DNA of 64,000 nt from Escherichia phage ukendt. Positions 10,252-60,650 of this stretch are shown in pieces. How positions within the stretch are numbered: position 1 is the stretch's first letter; each line of letters opens with the position of its first letter. A program made the translations under genes and the position numbers. The DNA lies in sequence record NC_052661.1, one strand, 5' to 3'. The notes beneath the pieces were generated by a model, which made no database searches, was not told where the DNA came from, and saw only the letters and a program-made list of their open reading frames with translations.

Positions 10252-12062
10252 AGATGTTTCTCCCTTTGCAAAACTTCCTGCATTTTACCTTTGTTATAAG
10301 GCCGTGAATTAGGGGCAGAAAGATACCCTGATACACGTCTAACTACAGAAATAGTTTCTTCTTCATGGTTGCCACAATTAGGACACTCAAACCCTTTAGC
10401 CGTTGCCTTAAATTCTCCATGAAAACCACACTTAAAGCATTGATCCACGGGCTGATTAATACCAAAATAGTGAATATGTTCATAAGCGTAGTCTACTAAA
10501 GTCTCCAAAGCTTCTAAGTTATTCTTTAAGTTTGGTGTTTCGACATAACTTATGTTACCACCATTGCTAATCTGTGCAAAACCTGCTTCATAATCCCATT
10601 TTTCAAAAGGATTTGTTACCAACCATACAGGTTGATGAAAAGAATTAGTAAGATAATCTCTTTCTACCAGACCTGGATATTTTTCATTTAAAGCTGTTGC
10701 AAATTTATAGCACAAGGATTCTGCTGGAGTTCCATAAAGACTAAATGCCAACTTAGATCGTTCTTTAAACACAGCACACACATCTTTCATATGTTGCAGA
10801 ATGTTTTTACCTAGTGCCTTTTTATCTTTTTCCTCTGGATAAAGGATTTCCAAAGCTTCGGCAAGACCTACATAACCAATACTAATAGAAGCATAACCAC
10901 CTTCAAACAAAGCACCAATTTCATCGTTGGCATTTAAACGCGCTAAAGCCCCTTCCATGAAAAGAATAGGGTTTTCAGATGCTTTGGTATGTCTGATACG
11001 GTTTACACGTAGCATGTGAGCATCGTAGGCTATCTCCATATGTTTATTAAGAAGATCGGTGAAAGATTCTCCTTTACTTCTCGCTTCCGCAGCAATCAGA
11101 GGCAAGTTGATAGAAACTACTCCAAGGTTGAATCGTCCATCATATTTTTCTCCTTGTTCGGTGGCATAGTACGACAAAAAGGAACGACAACCCATACTCG
11201 TAACAGTACCATCTGCTGATCCCGTAACTTCTTTGTTCAAAGGAACAGAAATAAAGTCTGGATAAATACGATCAGCACAACATGCCAAAGCTTGTTGCTT
11301 AAGGTCATAGTTAGGATCACTAGGTTTCATGTTAACGCCTTCTTGTAAAAAGAAAATAACTTTAGGGAATACAGGCGTTACATGATCTTTGCCTAGACCA
11401 TTACTATGCACTTTAAGATAGTTAGCTGTGATCATTCTGCCAAAAACAGAGGTATCCAGACCCATACTGATTGTAATAAAAGGAGATTGTCCATTTACAC
11501 TCATTAAAGTATTAACCTGATACAAGAGAGTTTGCATAGCATCATATACATCTTGTTCGGTCATTTCCAGGGCTTCTTTCCTTGCATAACAGCCGTAGCG
11601 ACGTTTGGTTATCTCCATGTTTTTAAGGAAACTAGCTTCAACATAAGGACTAAGACCTTTATCAATGTGCGCACACGTTTGACCTCCATACTGACTGGAG
11701 GCAACAGCTTGAATGATTTGAGTTAGCACTGTAGTAGCTACCCCAATAGATTTTGGTTTTTCTATCTGTGCGGCTCCGATCTTAAAACCATTCTCTAACA
11801 TATCTTGATAATTAACAAGACAACAGTTTGTAAGAGGAGAGAGCAGATAATCCAAGTCGTGAATATGCCCAAAACCTTCTGTATGCCATTCTGACAAGTT
11901 TTTTGGCAGTATCTGTGTCATTGCCATATGTTTGCTTAAAATCCCCGCCAAGAGATCCCTATGCGTGTTAACGAGGTGGGAAGGTTTATTTGCATTCTCT
12001 CTAGTGTATGTTTCTGAAGTGCGATCTAAAAAAGAAAAAACATCTTGGTACAAATCTTTCAT
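10248..12062 (-). CDS. nrdD: anaerobic ribonucleoside-triphosphate reductase (class III)
   Basis: 604 aa; C-terminal glycine-radical motif RRVSGYL preceded by CxxC..CxxC zinc ribbon. Confidence 0.85.
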   Translation of the reverse strand: MKDLYQDVFSFLDRTSETYTRENANKPSHLVNTHRDLLAGILSKHMAMTQILPKNLSEWHTEGFGHIHDLDYLLSPLTNCCLVNYQDMLENGFKIGAAQIEKPKSIGVATTVLTQIIQAVASSQYGGQTCAHIDKGLSPYVEASFLKNMEITKRRYGCYARKEALEMTEQDVYDAMQTLLYQVNTLMSVNGQSPFITISMGLDTSVFGRMITANYLKVHSNGLGKDHVTPVFPKVIFFLQEGVNMKPSDPNYDLKQQALACCADRIYPDFISVPLNKEVTGSADGTVTSMGCRSFLSYYATEQGEKYDGRFNLGVVSINLPLIAAEARSKGESFTDLLNKHMEIAYDAHMLRVNRIRHTKASENPILFMEGALARLNANDEIGALFEGGYASISIGYVGLAEALEILYPEEKDKKALGKNILQHMKDVCAVFKERSKLAFSLYGTPAESLCYKFATALNEKYPGLVERDYLTNSFHQPVWLVTNPFEKWDYEAGFAQISNGGNISYVETPNLKNNLEALETLVDYAYEHIHYFGINQPVDQCFKCGFHGEFKATAKGFECPNCGNHEEETISVVRRVSGYLSAPNSRPYNKGKMQEVLQREKHL

Positions 12063-12133
12063 TATTAATCCTTATTTTGTGAGTAGAACTATTATTCTAC
12101 CTCTTCCAACCGAAAAAAGCTTTGAGGAAAATC

Positions 12134-12160
12134 AAAAAAGGCGCAAACTGCGCCTTTAAG
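12134..12160 (-). terminator. rho-independent terminator
   Basis: AAAGGCGC-5 nt-GCGCCTTT hairpin followed by TTTTGATTTT on the minus strand, just past the stop at 12163. Confidence 0.6.
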
Positions 12161-12162
12161 TT

Positions 12163-13524
12163 TTATTGTTTGGAGAGGAATTGTCTTCCCATGATCTTAC
12201 CGTTCTTTACAGCGGTCCCATCATGTCCATTATAATCCCAAGTTCCATCGATATTACGCAAGAAGCTATCACGAACAGTGTAGGCTTTACCGTTCTCTAC
12301 TTTACTTTCTTCAACAATGATTGCCATAACAAGCTTATTTTCAATTTCGGTAGTAACTGATTCTTTAATACCCTTTGTAACTTCACGATCATATTGGATA
12401 TAAACTCGCTCCTCGGTCACTTGCACGTCTACCACATTTTTAAATGTGTATGTCTGCTGTGTAGTGTAAAGGACACGAACGACACTCTTCTTACCTACTG
12501 GCGGCTTCTGACGACGCTTGCGGTAACGTGGTTTAGGGTTGTTAGTTGGAAGCCAACCAACAATATCCCGATCCTGTTCATGATGACCCCAAGTGAAATG
12601 CGTAGCCGATCCACTATCCGTAGTTCCGTCACGGAAGAGAACTTCTACGTGACCACCACAAGGGCGGTGTCCACCATTATGATAGTTGTATTTTGCCGTG
12701 CGCGGGAGAATGAAGTATTCTTTAATCGCCCATTCTTCCAGATCGTGATTATTGTCAACACTCCAGTTGAATACTGTCCCCTTAGCAACCTCTGTTTTAC
12801 CGTTGTTGAAGCGAACCTGCACGAAATCTTCTGAAGGCATAACACCTGTATTAGGAATATAGGTAGGCTCTGTGTCTTCTGGTTCAAAAGTCTCTTTTTG
12901 TTGTTCCACATCTTCCACTTTTCTTACATGTTTAGTATAAAACATATCTTTAAACTCCTGTGCTTCAACCTCAACTGCAAATTCATGTTCTCTGACAGCC
13001 GGAGGCACAAGGCTTCCACACTCAAGATGTAGAGCATCCAGACCTGCCATTTTATCGTAAAAGATAACTTTTCGATACTTCTTACCGTCTTCTGGAATAG
13101 CAGGGTCTACTCGTTTAAGACGGGAAGCATCGCTTTTAGTCCAAAAACTCTTCCCTGTTGTATTATTGAAAGTAGTAATCATTTCTCCAATTTCTTCTTC
13201 AGAAAGGTTACTAGTGTCTGTGTAAACATCTTCAATTTTTAGCATTTTAGTTTTCTTAAAAATTAAATCTAGCATTGCATCTCCTGTAAAACGTAGTTCA
13301 TTATCTCCTACTGTCGGCTCTCCAGAAAATTCATCGGTCCCGACTGTGTGACAGATGTATGGAAAATTTGTGCAACCGTGTAAAAGAGCATATTGTCCTG
13401 TAAGTTTAGGATCTGTCTCTTTAGTCCAACCATATGCAATCTCAATAGCTTTGCAAAGCCTATCGAACAAGCCCCGATTGTTTGCCGCTGTTACCAAATC
13501 TTGCTTATGTGCATATACATTCAT
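12163..13524 (-). CDS. hypothetical protein (weak RNase III-like signature)
   Basis: 453 aa; ELRFTGDAM resembles the RNase III ERLEFLGDA signature, no other support. Confidence 0.5.
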   Translation of the reverse strand: MNVYAHKQDLVTAANNRGLFDRLCKAIEIAYGWTKETDPKLTGQYALLHGCTNFPYICHTVGTDEFSGEPTVGDNELRFTGDAMLDLIFKKTKMLKIEDVYTDTSNLSEEEIGEMITTFNNTTGKSFWTKSDASRLKRVDPAIPEDGKKYRKVIFYDKMAGLDALHLECGSLVPPAVREHEFAVEVEAQEFKDMFYTKHVRKVEDVEQQKETFEPEDTEPTYIPNTGVMPSEDFVQVRFNNGKTEVAKGTVFNWSVDNNHDLEEWAIKEYFILPRTAKYNYHNGGHRPCGGHVEVLFRDGTTDSGSATHFTWGHHEQDRDIVGWLPTNNPKPRYRKRRQKPPVGKKSVVRVLYTTQQTYTFKNVVDVQVTEERVYIQYDREVTKGIKESVTTEIENKLVMAIIVEESKVENGKAYTVRDSFLRNIDGTWDYNGHDGTAVKNGKIMGRQFLSKQ

Positions 13525-14075
13525 AATAACCCTCCTCGTTTTATTGCAATAGATGCCCTAGGCTCTGCGATACCAGTGGCGTATAAATATGGATGACCTT
13601 GTGGAGAAGTTCTCATCCCAAACGAACCTAATTCTAACCCATACATATCTTCCACGTCAAGACCAATATCTGTCTCTATGATTTGAGTTTGAACTTTGTA
13701 ATACGTCCAAAAGAAATAGCGCATAGTTTCGGCATATTCTTTGACGGACGCTCCTGGATAAAACTCAATAATTTCCAACTTTAAGAAAATGTTAAAATGA
13801 GCATCATCCAACTCTTCTTCTGTTCGGTAGCAAGGTGTTAGAGCCATATAAGGATGATCTGTTGAAAATTCAAACCCATCTTTCTCCATCTGGAGGAAAG
13901 ACTGCTCTGCACTGGCTACGTAGAACTTACCATTAGGATGCCCCAAGGGGCGATCCTCTTTACCTTCTGGTAATGTATATGCAAGGATATCCGCATCTAC
14001 AAGATAAGGGACTTCCAACATCTCCGCAAATCGCCCGTAGTAATCAATAGCTTGAGCAATAACAGCTACGTTCAT
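13521..14075 (-). CDS. hypothetical protein
   Basis: 184 aa ORF, stop/start coupled to neighbours. Confidence 0.5.
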   Translation of the reverse strand: MNVAVIAQAIDYYGRFAEMLEVPYLVDADILAYTLPEGKEDRPLGHPNGKFYVASAEQSFLQMEKDGFEFSTDHPYMALTPCYRTEEELDDAHFNIFLKLEIIEFYPGASVKEYAETMRYFFWTYYKVQTQIIETDIGLDVEDMYGLELGSFGMRTSPQGHPYLYATGIAEPRASIAIKRGGLL

Positions 14076-14323
14076 GATCTTCCTCCTGTGCGGAAAGCGC
14101 GTTTAGTAATGCCGGACATAATGATTAAATCTTGTAAAGTCATATCTGGGAACTGTTGTTCTAAAACTCCTTCAACAGCCCCTATAATATCTGATAATTC
14201 AACAAGTTGCATTATTTTGCAATCCTGTTCAACAGCATCAAAAAGTTCTTCTACTTCCTCTTTAATCTTTTCTATGCTGCCATAAGGTTGTTTCTTAATG
14301 TCTGTTATGTGATACCCTGCCAT
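14072..14323 (-). CDS. small all-alpha protein, possibly MazG/HisE-like NTP pyrophosphohydrolase
   Basis: 83 aa; EExxE-rich helical pattern. Confidence 0.35.
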   Translation of the reverse strand: MAGYHITDIKKQPYGSIEKIKEEVEELFDAVEQDCKIMQLVELSDIIGAVEGVLEQQFPDMTLQDLIIMSGITKRAFRTGGRS

Positions 14324-15916
14324 TTAACGATCCTCTCTGATTTGATTAATCTTACGAGCAAGGGCAGCTATAAGTTTATCTTCTTCGGATATAGGAGCCG
14401 TGCTCTTACCTAAACGATGCATGTCTAGAATCTCTTGAACAGTCCGGTTCCATTGTAGACATTTAATACAACGTGTATGTGCAACATACAGAAGATTTCG
14501 TTCTGATTCTTCAAGACCTACCCACTCACCCTTCTTATCATAATTAGAAGGAAAGTCATTTGCAACAATAACCTGATCCCACTCCAAACCTTTTGATTTA
14601 TGGGCCGTAGTTAAAGTAACTTTAGCCGTTGGAGAGTTACGGTGCATACGTAAAGTGTATGCAATATTATTAGCTTTACCAGAAACAACAATGTTTAAAA
14701 GTCGTTTTGCATCAGGATCTGATTCTGCACACTCTACAAATTCTTCCCAAGAAGTGTAAGGTAGAACTGTCTCATGCTTAACTTTGTCCAAATCACCTCT
14801 ACGTAAAGCATTAACACTATCAACCATAGAAATGAAATCTTTGGTATCTACGTTAATAATAATCTCTTCTCCGTTAGCGATTCGATCCATAGCTTCGAGC
14901 AACAGGGTCAAATTCTTACGGAAAATAATGGTGTAAGGTTTACTATAATCTACCACATCAGAATGAAAACTTCCAGTGACAGTATCATAACCTTTCCCTA
15001 CCAGCGGATGCTTCAGAGGTGAGCGATCAGAAAGGATCGCATTAGCAATGTCCGCAACTTTAGGACCAAAGCGAAAACAAGCTGTCAGAGGCAACTCAAC
15101 CCCATATGTAGCCGTTTGCTTCATCATGTTCTGGCTTCCACGGAACTGATAAATACTCTGAAATTCATCACCCACAACAACAATACGTTTAGCCGATTTA
15201 GCATTGCGAAGGATAGACAGGAATGCAGGGTTAACATCCTGGAATTCATCTCCAAAAATAATATCGTATCCTAAATCTTCTTTACTCAATTCAAAGAGTT
15301 TCACATAGGTGTCATGAGTCATAATGGTTTCTGATTTAGGATCAATACGCTCACGCCAAAGTTGCTTCGCATATTTAACAACTTCGTTAATAAGTTTTTG
15401 TTCGTTGATGTTCTTACGTTTAAGATCTGACATATGCACTTTAGGAAAATGTTTATGTCCAATATGTTCATCGTCAGAAAACTCATATTTAGCTAAAGTT
15501 TGTTTTACCATTAACCCGATCATTGCACGAGTCAGTAGCACTTTACCATTCTTATCAATCAAGTTCTGAATCTTGAATTTTTTGGCAATCTCACTACCAG
15601 TTCCAGCTACGTTAACATATTGGCCTTCTGGACGAGACAATTTGTGTCGAAGGTTTTGTGGAAGACGCTGGTAACAGATTGAATGTAGCGTTCGGCACAT
15701 AACATTAGGCGGCATTTTACGTCGAGCTTCCTCTGCCATACTTTTGTTAAACGCCAAGTATAGAATACTATCATTTGTGCCATTAGCCAACATATACAGT
15801 GTTGACGTTTTACCTGATCCAGATTTAGCTTGAATTGTAACGAAACGATTTTCTTGATACCCACTTTCAATAGCGTATTGTTCATCGGTAGGTGTAAAAC
15901 TCAATTGTGTAGACAC
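14324..15916 (-). CDS. SF1 DNA helicase (UvrD/Dda-like)
   Basis: 530 aa; Walker A AKSGSGKTS near N-terminus, DEFQ-type Walker B. Confidence 0.6.
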   Translation of the reverse strand: MSTQLSFTPTDEQYAIESGYQENRFVTIQAKSGSGKTSTLYMLANGTNDSILYLAFNKSMAEEARRKMPPNVMCRTLHSICYQRLPQNLRHKLSRPEGQYVNVAGTGSEIAKKFKIQNLIDKNGKVLLTRAMIGLMVKQTLAKYEFSDDEHIGHKHFPKVHMSDLKRKNINEQKLINEVVKYAKQLWRERIDPKSETIMTHDTYVKLFELSKEDLGYDIIFGDEFQDVNPAFLSILRNAKSAKRIVVVGDEFQSIYQFRGSQNMMKQTATYGVELPLTACFRFGPKVADIANAILSDRSPLKHPLVGKGYDTVTGSFHSDVVDYSKPYTIIFRKNLTLLLEAMDRIANGEEIIINVDTKDFISMVDSVNALRRGDLDKVKHETVLPYTSWEEFVECAESDPDAKRLLNIVVSGKANNIAYTLRMHRNSPTAKVTLTTAHKSKGLEWDQVIVANDFPSNYDKKGEWVGLEESERNLLYVAHTRCIKCLQWNRTVQEILDMHRLGKSTAPISEEDKLIAALARKINQIREDR

Positions 15917-56221: not shown

Positions 56222-56250
56222 AAAAGGCACCCACTTGGGTGCCTTTGTTT
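56222..56250. terminator. bidirectional rho-independent terminator at the convergent junction
   Basis: AGGCACCCA...TGGGTGCCT hairpin flanked by an A-run upstream and a T-run downstream. Confidence 0.6.
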
Positions 56251-56565: not shown

Positions 56566-57366
56566 TTATTTGTTTAAATGGTCTTCAACCATTTTGATAA
56601 AGCCTTCATCACTGAAGACTGTTCCTGCTTTCTCTCGGTAGACAAGCACTCCACGTTCTTCGTAGAGAGTTTGTTCTACAAAATTCAAACCTGGGTTAAC
56701 TACAACCATCTTAACCCCAATATTCAGGGCAGGGAAGAGTTCCCAGTTGAAGTTGATTACTTGGTTAGAGCAGCCTACAACGATAACCATATCTTGTGAT
56801 GTTAGTTGATCCAGTTTGTGATACATGTCTGTGTAGAGCGGTGCATTCTCACCAAAAAACACCACATTAGGCTTCACATATTTGTAATCGTCTACATCAA
56901 TAGCTGCGTAACCCACATCTTTGATAATTTTGTTATCAACAACAACTTCTGGCAAGAAACCATGAACGTGCAATATTTCTTCTCTATCGATTCCAGCGCG
57001 TTCTAATAGATCGTCAACGTTAGTAGTGATGTTAATAATCCTTTCTGCACCGTATTTTTCGAACCATTCTCCAATCTGAAGATGTGCTGGATTCGGGTCA
57101 ACTTTCTCTAATTCCACGCGACGTTTATTGTAGAAGTCGTGAGTTTTACGGTAGAGGTTATATCCTTCCACATCTAAGCCACCCATAGCATCAGGAATAC
57201 CCTGTTCTTGCTGATAACCGTCACGGAAGTTGAAAATGTCACAGACTTCTGTCAAATCGTATTCATCCCATAATGCCTTTCCAGAATCTGTTTCTGTGCG
57301 AAATGTTTGGATTCCGCTGTCAGCACTTAGTCCCGCACCACTAATAAAATATACACGTCTTGGCAT
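56566..57366 (-). CDS. Sir2-family (sirtuin-like) NAD-dependent protein
   Basis: 266 aa; FISGAGLSADSGIQTFR, HG, NVVFFGEN and VVGCSN motifs; no obvious zinc-ribbon Cys4. Confidence 0.6.
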   Translation of the reverse strand: MPRRVYFISGAGLSADSGIQTFRTETDSGKALWDEYDLTEVCDIFNFRDGYQQEQGIPDAMGGLDVEGYNLYRKTHDFYNKRRVELEKVDPNPAHLQIGEWFEKYGAERIINITTNVDDLLERAGIDREEILHVHGFLPEVVVDNKIIKDVGYAAIDVDDYKYVKPNVVFFGENAPLYTDMYHKLDQLTSQDMVIVVGCSNQVINFNWELFPALNIGVKMVVVNPGLNFVEQTLYEERGVLVYREKAGTVFSDEGFIKMVEDHLNK

Positions 57367-57839
57367 TATTCGTCCTCCTCAAATGGATCATAAGAATCAT
57401 ATTCGTAAGTATCATCTTCTGAAAATTCTACTTCAAAATAAATATCAAACTCTGCAAATAGACAGAGGATGTTAGACATGCTATAATAATTATCGTAGGC
57501 AGATTCAGCTTCATAATAAACATAAAGCAAATGGTTAGCCTTATCATCTTCCAAATATTTCCCGTCTGCATAAGCATAATCCGCATATGCTTTACCTGCA
57601 TCTTCTACAAAGGAACGATCAAGCAGAGTAGGAAAGGGTTTCTCTTTTTCTTTTAGTTTGCTCACCAACCAATGTGCAATCTCACTCCAGTCTGCATCCA
57701 TTCCACTGAAACAACTGGCACCTTCACCAAATTCTGCTTCTCCTAAGTCCCCTTTAATAGTAACTACAGTAGAGCTATTGTAACCGCAATCTTCACAGTC
57801 TGAATAACTATTGTGGACATTAATTTCTACTTGAAACAT
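57366..57839 (-). CDS. highly acidic protein
   Basis: 157 aa Asp/Glu/Tyr-rich; stop overlaps Sir2 start. Confidence 0.5.
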   Translation of the reverse strand: MFQVEINVHNSYSDCEDCGYNSSTVVTIKGDLGEAEFGEGASCFSGMDADWSEIAHWLVSKLKEKEKPFPTLLDRSFVEDAGKAYADYAYADGKYLEDDKANHLLYVYYEAESAYDNYYSMSNILCLFAEFDIYFEVEFSEDDTYEYDSYDPFEEDE

Positions 57840-57854
57840 ATTCCCTCCTATAAA

Positions 57855-57880
57855 GAAAAGCCCCCTGAAACAGGAGGCTT
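57855..57880 (-). terminator. rho-independent terminator
   Basis: AGCCTCCTG-ttt-CAGGGGGCT hairpin with one mismatch, then TTTTCTTTAT on the minus strand. Confidence 0.45.
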
Positions 57881-57896
57881 TGTTCAGATGTTGGCA

Positions 57897-58550
57897 CTAT
57901 ACCAGACTTTGTAGGTATTTGTCAAGGGCTTCTTGATCACCTTGGCAAACATAGCAACGGAAGTCTTGAGACGAAGGTTGTTTATTTTCATCCCAATCCC
58001 AATAAACATTACCTTTATAACGTGAGCCAGGAAACTCAAAAGAGGCTGTATGTGTAATGTATCCTGGGCCACCAGTGAAATCACAGAATGAGAATTGAGG
58101 GTATGCCGCCTTTACTGCCTCAATAAACCAAGCTTTACGATCTAATGCTTCATTGATGCTATATGCATGTCTCTCCATTTCTTCCCAAGTTTTCCAGACA
58201 CTTCTCTCATCAGGAGAAAAGACAAGCCATTCTGGAAGGTAGAGAGTGTCATAGTAATCATCATATTCGATCTCGGAGGCGCACGAAGCTGACTCCTCCA
58301 GTTTTGAGTAATCAAAAGCCGAATATACCCACCAACCATCTTCCAGTAAGGCTTTGATAGGGACGAAGCCTTTATCAACATATTGATCGAATTGTTTGAC
58401 ACGGTGGCTTGTGCAGTCTTCAAACTCACATTCTAAACGATAGGCACCTTTTCGACGAGCCTCAAGACCGTGTGTACTGAAAATAACAACACTTCCTTCA
58501 CCATCGTTACGATCTACTTGATAAGCAACTACTGGTTTTGAATTTGACAT
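57897..58550 (-). CDS. hypothetical protein
   Basis: 217 aa ORF. Confidence 0.5.
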   Translation of the reverse strand: MSNSKPVVAYQVDRNDGEGSVVIFSTHGLEARRKGAYRLECEFEDCTSHRVKQFDQYVDKGFVPIKALLEDGWWVYSAFDYSKLEESASCASEIEYDDYYDTLYLPEWLVFSPDERSVWKTWEEMERHAYSINEALDRKAWFIEAVKAAYPQFSFCDFTGGPGYITHTASFEFPGSRYKGNVYWDWDENKQPSSQDFRCYVCQGDQEALDKYLQSLV

Positions 58551-59275
58551 TATTTCTCCTTATCTAGAAGATTGTTAGACAAAAACACGGCACGAGCAAA
58601 ACCACGTGCGGTTAGGGATCTAAGTTGTTTTGTTTTTGCACTAGCTCCACCTAAGCTTTTCCAACCCCAGAAGCAGCCTATATGATCTACTGGTTTCTTC
58701 ACTGGTTGAACAAAACCATTGCCGTGCCAAATACAAGTTTTCTTTGTATACCCATCACGGGTAGGCATTTTAGGATGAAAGCTCCCTTCCTCTTCAAACA
58801 AATACCCACCATACTCATAAGGATCAAAGTAAAAATCGGGTTTACGCCATAAGGTTGAAAGTTTACCTACTGGGTTCTCAATCATCCAAGGAACATTATA
58901 TTTGTTACCCAAAGCTTCCACTACACGAATATTAGCTAAAGCTTCATCCAATTCCTCTGTGCTACGTTCGTGTTTGCTACCACTACCTGCTAACATAGTG
59001 CAAGGTGGAAATCCAAAAATAATATCGGGTTTAGGTATCCCATGATCTTCAGGGTTGAATGTAGAATCTATCCAAGCATTCACATAGGTTATGTTTGGGT
59101 GCTCCATCCTAACCTCGTATTTACCGTGATCCCCTTCATCAGCGTTTACACAAAAACACTTGTGACCTGCTTCGGCATAACGTAACACCATGATCCCAGA
59201 TCCGTCAAACATAGACAAAACTGTTTTACTCATTACCCCTCCATTCAAGACAAGCCATAACTTTACGCCAATCAC
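58550..59275 (-). CDS. C5-cytosine methyltransferase-like protein
   Basis: LSMFDGSGI (motif I-like), FGFPPCT (PC motif-like), IENPVG (ENV-like); short, no clear target-recognition domain. Confidence 0.4.
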   Translation of the reverse strand: MIGVKLWLVLNGGVMSKTVLSMFDGSGIMVLRYAEAGHKCFCVNADEGDHGKYEVRMEHPNITYVNAWIDSTFNPEDHGIPKPDIIFGFPPCTMLAGSGSKHERSTEELDEALANIRVVEALGNKYNVPWMIENPVGKLSTLWRKPDFYFDPYEYGGYLFEEEGSFHPKMPTRDGYTKKTCIWHGNGFVQPVKKPVDHIGCFWGWKSLGGASAKTKQLRSLTARGFARAVFLSNNLLDKEK

Positions 59276-59639
59276 TTTCTGTAAGAAAAATCTCGTTTGC
59301 TTTCTTCCACAAATCTAAATCGTGAAGGGTTGGAATACGATATGTTAGTTCACAGAATCTATGCTCTTCTTCTGTAATATAACCAAAATGCAGAGCCACA
59401 TCGTGAAACCAACACCAACCATGCATCTCTCGAACAACATGGTCATGCTGAGACATTGTTTTATGCCGTAAACCTAACCAACAAGGAACAGATACTTTAG
59501 TAGTCTTTAATCTGTGATCAACAATATTAGAGTATTCAATAATAGCTGTCAGTTTCAATCGTGCTTTTTCTAAATCCTCGTGGGTCACTTTGAAATAACT
59601 TTCTGAAAGATATCCACACATATTAATAACCTCCTTCAA
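59226..59639 (-). CDS. hypothetical protein
   Basis: 137 aa ORF. Confidence 0.45.
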   Translation of the reverse strand: MKEVINMCGYLSESYFKVTHEDLEKARLKLTAIIEYSNIVDHRLKTTKVSVPCWLGLRHKTMSQHDHVVREMHGWCWFHDVALHFGYITEEEHRFCELTYRIPTLHDLDLWKKANEIFLTESDWRKVMACLEWRGNE

Positions 59640-60564
59640 AAGGCTTAACTACATGTTGATTAGCTTTAAAACGTTCAACATAGTCGTTTTCACCCATGTT
59701 TTCATATAGCTTAGTAACAACATAAAAGTTTTCCCAAGCATATTCCCTAAACCAACCACTAGTGATGGATGTGCAGACTTTAGATAAAGCCATTATAAAA
59801 CTTTGCTTAGGGGTTGGACCTCCGATCTCTCCACCGAAAGGAATTTGTGAACGTTCCAAAGCCAAAACACACGCTTCTTCATAAACACCTAACAGGCGCA
59901 CATGTTTTGGTTGAGCAAAAAACTTTTCTTTGCTGGTCATAACTTCACTTCCATCCTTCATATAAGATTTATATGCTGGAGCATCCATTACTGCGATTGC
60001 TTCATGAATAGAGTCATGATCATAAACATACGGAACCTCATCACCTTTAAAGAAGTCTTTACTTCTCACGTTTAAGTTTGGATGAGAGTAAGTGTATGTT
60101 TCTTTCTCACGCAACTCATAAATACTCTTAAGATTTTCTGGGATCTTTGCGCCTAGTGATCGCATGAAATGAATATCTTTCATAGTTTTAAAGAAGTGAG
60201 GACTATCCTTTTTAAAACGATGACTCATTTTAAGAAGGTAGAGCACATCTAAAGGAGCAACAACGTGTCCAGCGTAAGTTCGACGAATATCATCAGAGTC
60301 TTCACAATAACTAATCAAAGCTTCTGTGCTATCTCCTTGAGAAGCAATATCGTATTCCAAGTGTGCACCAGCTATCATTTTGACATGGCCCTTGTTCCCT
60401 TTACGCTCTACAAGTTCAACAAACTCATCTTGAGAGAACATTTTTGATAATTCTTCCCACTCTTGTTCTGTACAGAGATAATCTAAATCTACACAAGGGC
60501 GATACAAGTCTTTTCCCATGTCCATAGCATGAATTTGTAATGCACGGCTACCAATTAACACCAT
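59623..60564 (-). CDS. hypothetical protein (possible nucleotidyltransferase fold)
   Basis: 313 aa; N-terminal GS...DLD pattern; sigma70-like promoter upstream. Confidence 0.45.
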   Translation of the reverse strand: MVLIGSRALQIHAMDMGKDLYRPCVDLDYLCTEQEWEELSKMFSQDEFVELVERKGNKGHVKMIAGAHLEYDIASQGDSTEALISYCEDSDDIRRTYAGHVVAPLDVLYLLKMSHRFKKDSPHFFKTMKDIHFMRSLGAKIPENLKSIYELREKETYTYSHPNLNVRSKDFFKGDEVPYVYDHDSIHEAIAVMDAPAYKSYMKDGSEVMTSKEKFFAQPKHVRLLGVYEEACVLALERSQIPFGGEIGGPTPKQSFIMALSKVCTSITSGWFREYAWENFYVVTKLYENMGENDYVERFKANQHVVKPFEGGY

Positions 60565-60589
60565 AATATTTCTCCTCTATTGGTTGATA

Positions 60590-60618
60590 GGTTAAGTTTA
60601 TCAAGCTTCCAGATTTCT
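60590..60618 (-). promoter_or_regulatory. sigma70-like promoter
   Basis: On the minus strand: TTGACA, 17 nt, TAAACT, upstream of the gene starting at 60564. Confidence 0.45.
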
Positions 60619-60622
60619 GTCA

Positions 60623-60650
60623 ATAAAAAACCCGCCGAAGCGGGTTATTA
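60623..60650 (-). terminator. rho-independent terminator
   Basis: AACCCGC-TTCG-GCGGGTT followed by TTTTTTATTG on the minus strand. Confidence 0.6.

Follow-up and report, generated by a model that had tools for sequence, protein, structure and literature searches.

Introduction

A minus-strand gene of Escherichia phage ukendt (sequence record NC_052661.1), located in the 64,000-nucleotide stretch of DNA that we analyzed and refer to as the window, encodes a short protein resembling the cytosine C5-methyltransferases of DNA. Relatives of this gene with experimental data come from the phages K42, AAS23 and KP36. K42 belongs to the Drexlerviridae and is a relative of phage KarlJaspers. Escape mutants of K42 were isolated on the retron Ec86 (Eco1), and all four of the escapers carried lesions in a 711-bp gene called dcm (bioRxiv 10.1101/2023.08.16.553469). 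In the same work, co-expression of the K42 Dcm with retron Ec86 was toxic, and LC-MS (liquid chromatography coupled to mass spectrometry) found the 5-methylcytosine (5mC) of the multicopy single-stranded DNA (msDNA) to be increased, the product co-eluting with the 5mC standard. The C82A/E128A/K175A/K176A form of K42 Dcm gave neither toxicity with the retron nor the rise in msDNA 5mC (bioRxiv 10.1101/2023.08.16.553469). This preprint later appeared as Wang et al., Cell Rep 2024;43:114857.

The other two phages were studied at the level of their DNA. The DNA of Pantoea phage AAS23 was reported by restriction analysis to be Dcm-methylated and is resistant to EcoRII; its authors saw no conserved domain in the product gp52, for which HHpred gave a probability of 99.7% to a Shigella C5-methyltransferase. 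The DNA of Klebsiella phage KP36 (Webervirus) contains 155 CCWGG sites and is left uncut by EcoRII. In the 2013 KP36 paper the phage was held to be without a cytosine methyltransferase, and the resistance was credited to the host Dcm. A further phage enzyme, CmoX (8yf3), is a DNA cytosine C5-carboxymethyltransferase of 333 amino acids, defined by an SPPC motif together with an Arg that replaces the Asn of motif X and binds the carboxylate of carboxy-S-adenosylmethionine (Cx-SAM); its gene usually adjoins CmoA and a ligase (PMC12783734).

We find that the gene in the window is a member of a compact phage C5-methyltransferase family, phrog_757, and is already annotated in GenBank. Judging from its sequence and its predicted structure, the product is very probably an active DNA C5-methyltransferase of that family. 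The notable point is the architecture, that of a minimal C5-methyltransferase with a short gap between motifs VIII and IX, KK in place of RxR and no recognizable motif X.

Results

The gene and its product

The open reading frame listing of the window gives a minus-strand frame at 58550..59275 that begins with GTG and has 241 amino acids. The coding sequence that begins at the ATG at 59233 instead occupies 58550..59233 on the minus strand and specifies 227 amino acids and a stop. This ATG is almost certainly the true start, and we settle on the 227-aa product because several features of the sequence favor it: the Shine-Dalgarno-like GGAGGGG at 59236-59242 (minus strand) lies 2 bases 5' of the ATG, the ATG shares bases with the stop codon of the gene before it (ATGAGTAA), the homologues start at the matching position (MSK...), and the 684-bp gp194 of phage phAPEC8, the orthologue of the window gene, is annotated with an equal start. 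The 241-aa form was dropped for these reasons, and the GTG extension is probably not translated. A preliminary description made from the letters alone had reported LSMFDGSGI, FGFPPCT and IENPVG in this frame and a length of about 226-241 residues; all three motifs are present in the order claimed, and 227 residues fall inside that range. Residues are numbered from the ATG at 59233 throughout.

Homologues and family membership

The Dcm-like product of the 711-bp gene of KarlJaspers (Bas06) is 50% identical to the window protein over its full length (E=1e-71), and residues C82, E128, K175 and K176, those mutated in K42 Dcm, align with C78, E119, K164 and K165 of the window protein. Also over the full length, AAS23 gp52 is 52% identical, and gp74 of KP36 (11553-12245 of the KP36 stretch) is 59% identical. 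The attribution of the KP36 result to host Dcm deserves re-examination, given that KP36 itself encodes this 59%-identical family member.

Among the PHROGs, phrog_757 ('DNA methyltransferase') matches the window protein with E=1.8e-84, residues 1-225 aligning with profile positions 13-223 of 247. NCBIfam gave zero matches for the window protein. Since neither Pfam nor NCBIfam returned anything usable, the family assignment rests on PHROGs, fold comparison and pairwise homology.

A megablast search with 57800-60600 matched 63 phage records at 92-98% identity, all of them phAPEC8-like myoviruses (Phapecoctavirus, Stephanstirmvirinae), and the window itself is phAPEC8-like, with 98% identity. The gene is found in every one of these phapecoctavirus records matched at the DNA level, and a tblastn search recovered the protein at 99% identity or more in 63 records. 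The gene is variously labeled as hypothetical protein, DNA methyltransferase, putative site-specific DNA methylase or Dcm. The wider family is large. A word-indexed search gave 870 homologues, the best 120 of which are all 210-267 aa in length, and an exhaustive HMMER search gave 965 clusters at 50% identity, with most of the listed members at 200-260 aa besides evident fragments. By tblastn, matches occur in 1,486 of 50,697 phage records (about 3%), and the phages that carry the gene include Drexlerviridae (T1-like), Webervirus, rV5-like, PVP-SE1-like and Krischvirus phages and the P1-like D6, as well as phages of Vibrio, Xanthomonas, Azospirillum and Arthrobacter. Both of the bacterial copies that we inspected, one in Bdellovibrio and one in Salmonella, are in prophages.

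Motif anatomy

The motif assignments in the window protein are as follows.

59192-59218, minus strand: motif I, LSMFDGSGI, residues 6-14, the glycine loop after beta-1 that binds S-adenosylmethionine (AdoMet)
58997-59017, minus strand: motif IV, FGFPPCT, residues 73-79, with P77-C78 and the catalytic nucleophile Cys78
58865-58882, minus strand: motif VI, IENPVG, residues 118-123, with Glu119 as the residue that would protonate the target cytosine or make contact with it
58736..58750, minus strand: counterpart of motif VIII, YTKKT, residues 162-166, where beta-7 begins, with Lys164 and Lys165 at the RxR position
58583..58621, minus strand: motif IX-like C-terminal segment RSLTARGFARAVF, residues 205-217, with the protein ending 10 residues later

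Conservation was scored across 83 diverse family members whose mean identity is only about 33%. The family profile aligns motifs I-IV with M.HaeIII and DNMT2. In motif I, F9-D-G11-S-G13 pairs with LFSGAGG of M.HaeIII; the motif was also aligned to DNMT3A, and its FDG form resembles the LSLFDGIATG of the DNMT3 enzymes. Beta-1 covers residues 4-8 in the structural model, and the first Gly of motif I varies in the wider family. Cys78 of motif IV is unchanged in all 83 members, with F75, P76 and T79 at least 90% conserved. In motif VI, which was aligned with the ENV of DNMT3A and of E. coli Dcm, no member departs from E119 or P121, and conservation of N120 is at least 90%. The motifs are not a chance resemblance, since all 83 members keep C78 and E119, the profile aligns with M.HaeIII and DNMT2, and the predicted fold fits.

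The second half of the protein is where it departs from the classical enzymes. In a global hhalign comparison with DNMT3A (the sequence used is identical to PDB 5yx2_A), K164 and T166 stand opposite R790 and R792, and W169 faces the Trp of FWGN. The family keeps Y162 and W169 throughout, K164 and T166 are at least 90% conserved, and the lysines here probably stand in for the canonical arginines. A conserved 30-residue insertion (DPYEYGGY...HPKMP..DGY) lies between beta-6 and beta-7, and after beta-7 only 56 residues remain. Between YTKKT and RSLT there are about 38 residues (167-204), compared with the typically at least 80-residue target recognition domain (TRD) between motifs VIII and IX. 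The preliminary description was right to see no clear TRD, as these roughly 38 residues take the place of the 80 or more, plus hinge and motif X, of classical enzymes.

The C-terminal segment RSLTARGFARAVF pairs with motif IX of E. coli Dcm, RRLTPRECARLMGF, in a local hhalign comparison whose E-value of 0.14 is not significant by itself. R205, S206, T208, P209, G211 and A215 of this segment are at least 90% conserved, and residues 210-219 form the C-terminal helix of the model. We also considered the segment as a DNMT3-type motif X (GRSWSVP), a reading unsupported by the local alignment, which chooses the Dcm motif IX.

Predicted fold

An AlphaFold2 model built from the 83-sequence alignment has a mean predicted local distance difference test (pLDDT) score of 93.8 and a predicted template modeling score (pTM) of 0.91, and contains the full seven-stranded methyltransferase sheet. 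The only soft region of the model is residues 81-90, directly after Cys78, where the mean pLDDT is 69; this fits a mobile catalytic loop. With Foldseek, the best 50 matches in the PDB are all to DNMT3A, 3B or 3C at about E=1e-8, and BFVD contains near-identical short viral models with TM-scores up to 0.94. The model is a class I AdoMet-methyltransferase fold with C5-methyltransferase topology. The preliminary description had put forward structure prediction as a check, looking for a fold outside the methyltransferase family, and the fold predicted is that of a C5-methyltransferase.

The short fold was also seen in another setting. In the BFVD entries A0A6J5SE15 and A0A6J5NPY6 it appears (TM-score 0.64-0.70) as a domain of helicase-like proteins of 1,126-1,397 aa from uncultured Caudovirales, which suggests that large multidomain phage proteins make use of the short methyltransferase module as well.

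Transcription unit and neighboring genes

A consensus scan places the methyltransferase as the third gene in a four-gene minus-strand unit, with the following features.

60646-60629: terminator-like hairpin, annotated as a terminator in phAPEC8, with the promoter-like site at 60595..60623 just downstream
60595..60623, minus strand: promoter-like site at the head of the four-gene methyltransferase unit (TTGACA, 17-nt spacer, TAAACT, with TG), identified by consensus scan only
57897-58550, minus strand: gene of 217 aa whose ATG overlaps the methyltransferase stop (TAATG)
57857..57881, minus strand: terminator-like hairpin that ends the methyltransferase unit after the 217-aa gene, from the consensus scan

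The overlap of the methyltransferase ATG with the stop of the gene before it (ATGAGTAA) suggests that the two are translationally coupled. The downstream flanking gene belongs to phrog_8514, while upstream are a phrog_16551 gene and a DUF7277/DUF7275 protein, none with a known function. The five neighboring genes carry only Sir2, DUF7275/7277 or no domain; none of the five has a CmoA or ligase domain, and there is no Vsr-like gene adjoining the methyltransferase.

By tblastn, homologues of these five neighbors were not found in KarlJaspers, AAS23, KP36, T1 or two prophage loci. The neighbors of the methyltransferase differ among KarlJaspers, AAS23, KP36 and the Bdellovibrio and Salmonella prophages, and none is conserved. 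No adjacent restriction enzyme or nuclease gene is present in any locus examined (the window and six others), and on this ground a restriction-modification pairing was rejected. A split enzyme with a recognition subunit acting in trans, along the lines of M.AquI, was considered and rejected too, as the coupled neighbors are without known domains or co-located homologues in the six other loci. Because there is neither an adjacent restriction enzyme nor a conserved neighbor in the loci compared, the enzyme is a stand-alone orphan methyltransferase, neither split nor part of a restriction-modification pair.

Several other features of the region were seen in passing. The first gene of the unit, at 59623-60564 on the minus strand, encodes a 313-aa protein with DUF7277 (E=8e-14) and DUF7275 (E=1.6e-75), and reading by eye its N-terminus (LIGSRAL...CVDLDYL) resembles the G-S...D-x-D signature of minimal nucleotidyltransferases. 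Two genes further downstream of the methyltransferase unit is a 266-aa Sir2-family protein (56566-57366, minus strand; PF02146 with E=1.4e-20, phrog_2162), which is also annotated as Sir2 in phAPEC8. At the end of the minus-strand genes downstream of the unit, at 56223-56246, a GC-rich hairpin with a perfect 10-bp stem and T-runs on either side looks like a bidirectional terminator. Finally, phAPEC8 has a second small gene annotated 'DNA methyltransferase', gp177 (169 aa, 13845-14354 of the phAPEC8 stretch), on the same strand about 7 kb from gp194; it would fall about 1.6 kb past the end of the window.

Discussion

Probable activity and proposed mechanism

The case for activity of the window protein is drawn from homology, fold and conservation of the catalytic residues, and formation of 5mC on DNA has been demonstrated for homologues. 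The protein would bind AdoMet in its Rossmann-type domain through the FDGSG of motif I. The target cytosine would be flipped and attacked at C6 by Cys78, with Glu119 and Lys164/Lys165, at the position of motif VIII, holding the base, and the methyl group would then be passed to C5. Recognition would come from the catalytic loop (79-93), the insertion between beta-6 and beta-7, and the approximately 38 residues between motif VIII and the IX-like C-terminus. Methylation of CCWGG would shield the replicating phage DNA from EcoRII-type restriction while mimicking the mark of the host, and would make no substrates for the methylation-dependent nucleases of E. coli. The cost would be that methylation activity can be sensed by the retron Ec86/Eco1. 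An anti-restriction role is plausible.

Not all of the evidence points this way, and the observations that weigh against the reading of an active, Dcm-like methyltransferase concern the protein, its proposed role and its target. The protein is not canonical, having Lys and Thr in motif VIII, no recognized motif X and a variable Pro beside the catalytic Cys (P77, which is P, D, S or Q depending on the member, while the preceding P76 is kept). The arginines of the canonical QxRxR motif VIII are not present, the sequence reading Y-T-K-K-T, and no GN[AS]V sequence of a motif X follows the motif IX-like segment. The Pfam model PF00145 gives the window protein 11.6 bits (E=0.18), below the cut-off of 22, and covers only its N-terminal 89 residues, and the same model reaches E<=0.01 in only 2 of the 83 family members. 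As to role, in the BASEL study such genes bore no simple relation to resistance to restriction.

The target is less certain than the activity. CCWGG is not avoided in the window (86 sites observed, 57-80 expected), nor is it in KarlJaspers, AAS23 or KP36, and we abandoned site avoidance as a means of inferring the target, as it does not discriminate: T1, which is without the gene, also does not avoid CCWGG. The CCWGG target of K42 Dcm was carried over from the host Dcm, with the mutants of the msDNA stem as its only support (bioRxiv 10.1101/2023.08.16.553469), and such mutants could also disturb contacts with the effector. That work was done in dcm+ MG1655 (bioRxiv 10.1101/2023.08.16.553469), where the host Dcm evidently neither strongly methylated the msDNA nor triggered the retron. 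Host Dcm is a possible confounder of the EcoRII resistance seen with KP36 and AAS23 DNA, and the recognition surface of the window protein is small for reading a 5-bp site.

Counts of other sites in the window were made alongside. CCSGG (2 observed, 9-36 expected), GGCC (29, 84-93 expected) and CCGG (26, 75-93 expected) are strongly avoided, while GATC is over-represented (339, 227-304 expected). KarlJaspers shares the avoidance of CCSGG, with 2 sites observed and 12-51 expected.

Alternative explanations

The departures from the canonical motifs and the failure of Pfam to recognize the protein are what one would cite in favor of a catalytically dead relative whose action is to bind DNA or AdoMet, as a decoy or regulator might. 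The preliminary description had allowed for such a non-catalytic relative. We regard it as very improbable. The Cys and the motif VI Glu stay invariant in 83 members that are only about 33% identical on average, and this argues for selection on catalysis. The homologue in K42, moreover, raises 5mC in DNA, and this 50%-identical protein loses its effect when C82, E128, K175 and K176 are mutated, leaving an inert active-site mutant. An enzyme of the C5-methyltransferase fold could also move a group other than methyl, such as a carboxymethyl from Cx-SAM in the manner of CmoX, and so start a hypermodification pathway. We give this very little credence, since the window protein has FPPC and not SPPC, has no recognizable motif X and has neither CmoA nor a ligase among its five neighbors, and the product of the K42 homologue co-elutes with the 5mC standard. 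There is likewise only a slim chance that the substrate is RNA, as for the Dnmt2-like enzymes acting on tRNA, or a free nucleotide, as the DNA enzymes score higher in our comparisons and the K42 homologue acts on DNA. The preliminary description had spoken of a 'minimal DNA or nucleotide-modifying enzyme'. The part on DNA stands, and the part on nucleotides is not supported, because the substrate of the K42 homologue, the msDNA, is polymeric DNA.

More serious is the question of the target site for an active DNA C5-methyltransferase. By analogy with the homologues we lean slightly toward CCWGG. An enzyme with another specificity is rather unlikely; having next to no recognition domain, it might read no more than a motif of 2-3 bp, or it might favor DNA that is single-stranded, in a hairpin or at a replication fork, and in that case the 'Dcm-like' label may mislead. 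In favor of such an enzyme, the family is not orthologous to E. coli Dcm, as judged from sequence: the window protein and Dcm show no significant pairwise similarity by BLASTP (E=0.29), and hhalign aligns motifs I-VI only (E=0.045). The gap from motif VIII to the motif IX-like segment is only about 38 residues long, and the closest solved structures are the DNMT3 enzymes, which read only CpG. In K42 the target was assumed, and the Dcm of MG1655 left the retron untriggered despite the CCTGG site. The K42 enzyme acted on a hairpin of single-stranded DNA, and its authors remarked on toxicity of the Dcm (bioRxiv 10.1101/2023.08.16.553469). Members of about 60% identity also occur in phages of Bdellovibrio, Vibrio, Xanthomonas and Arthrobacter, hosts not known for Dcm-type methylation. 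On the side of CCWGG, both KP36 and AAS23 carry the gene and their DNA resists EcoRII, and altering either C of the CCTGG in the msDNA abolishes triggering of the retron (bioRxiv 10.1101/2023.08.16.553469). In addition, phapecoctaviruses with the gene were isolated on wild-type MG1655, an mcrBC+ strain, and a host-like pattern squares with this better than foreign 5mC on a wide scale would.

A more ambitious proposal, which we hold tentatively and consider doubtful, is that the enzyme is a C5-methyltransferase with essentially no TRD that has a defined specificity, whether CCWGG or other, through a mode of recognition not seen in solved enzymes. Such recognition may involve the beta-6/beta-7 insertion together with the catalytic loop, possibly in a symmetric dimer on the palindrome. 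Alternatively, the enzyme may favor DNA that is single-stranded or forms a hairpin, msDNA being an example. Were this proposal true, methylation of CCWGG would be convergent with that of the host Dcm and not inherited, as follows from the family not being orthologous to Dcm, and the family would be the smallest natural scaffold of a sequence-specific DNA C5-methyltransferase.

Implications

For the phage of the window these findings have little import. Every phapecoctavirus found keeps the gene, which already bears the label of a methyltransferase and belongs to a family with members linked to 5mC. The family itself merits more attention. It is present in about 3% of sequenced phage genomes and is missed by Pfam and NCBIfam, its members are some 100 residues shorter than classical enzymes, and it is a known trigger of the immunity provided by the retron Ec86/Eco1. 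A defined specificity from so small a scaffold, if true, would be of interest to structural biologists and useful as a compact epigenetic tool. Knowing the specificity would also help to predict which therapeutic phages are shielded from restriction of the EcoRII type, and which lie open to the retron and type IV defenses.

Comparison with known enzymes

The catalytic domains of DNMT3A and DNMT3B (6u8p, 5yx2) are about 18% identical to the window protein, and the hhalign match, with E=2.4e-4 over the N-terminal 81 columns, is marginal. The DNMT3 enzymes are about 60 residues longer and act on CpG as an oligomer; they possess motifs IX and X, a TRD loop and, in motif VIII, RxR. The likeness to DNMT3 is a structural resemblance, not membership.

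With E. coli Dcm/M.EcoRII (472 aa, CCWGG) the window protein aligns in motifs I, IV and VI, and its C-terminal segment resembles the Dcm motif IX. The product (5mC) is presumed to be common to both and the target site is possibly common. Dcm is twice as long, being extended at the N-terminus and equipped with a full TRD and a motif X. The dcm gene of E. coli overlaps vsr. Of the features of CmoX (SPPC, the motif X Arg, and linkage to CmoA and the ligase), none is present in the window protein or its locus.

The relatives in other phages are much closer. The comparison with KP36 gp74 and AAS23 gp52 concerns phage DNA reported to resist EcoRII, those reports being on the DNA. K42 and KarlJaspers are siphoviruses of the Drexlerviridae, whereas the phage of the window is a myovirus of the Stephanstirmvirinae, and the neighboring genes differ. 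In both KarlJaspers and the window the gene is nevertheless stand-alone and placed in a phage early or DNA-metabolism region. The K42/KarlJaspers Dcm has the same family and architecture as the window protein (236 and 227 aa, respectively), and all four of the residues that were mutated in it are kept.

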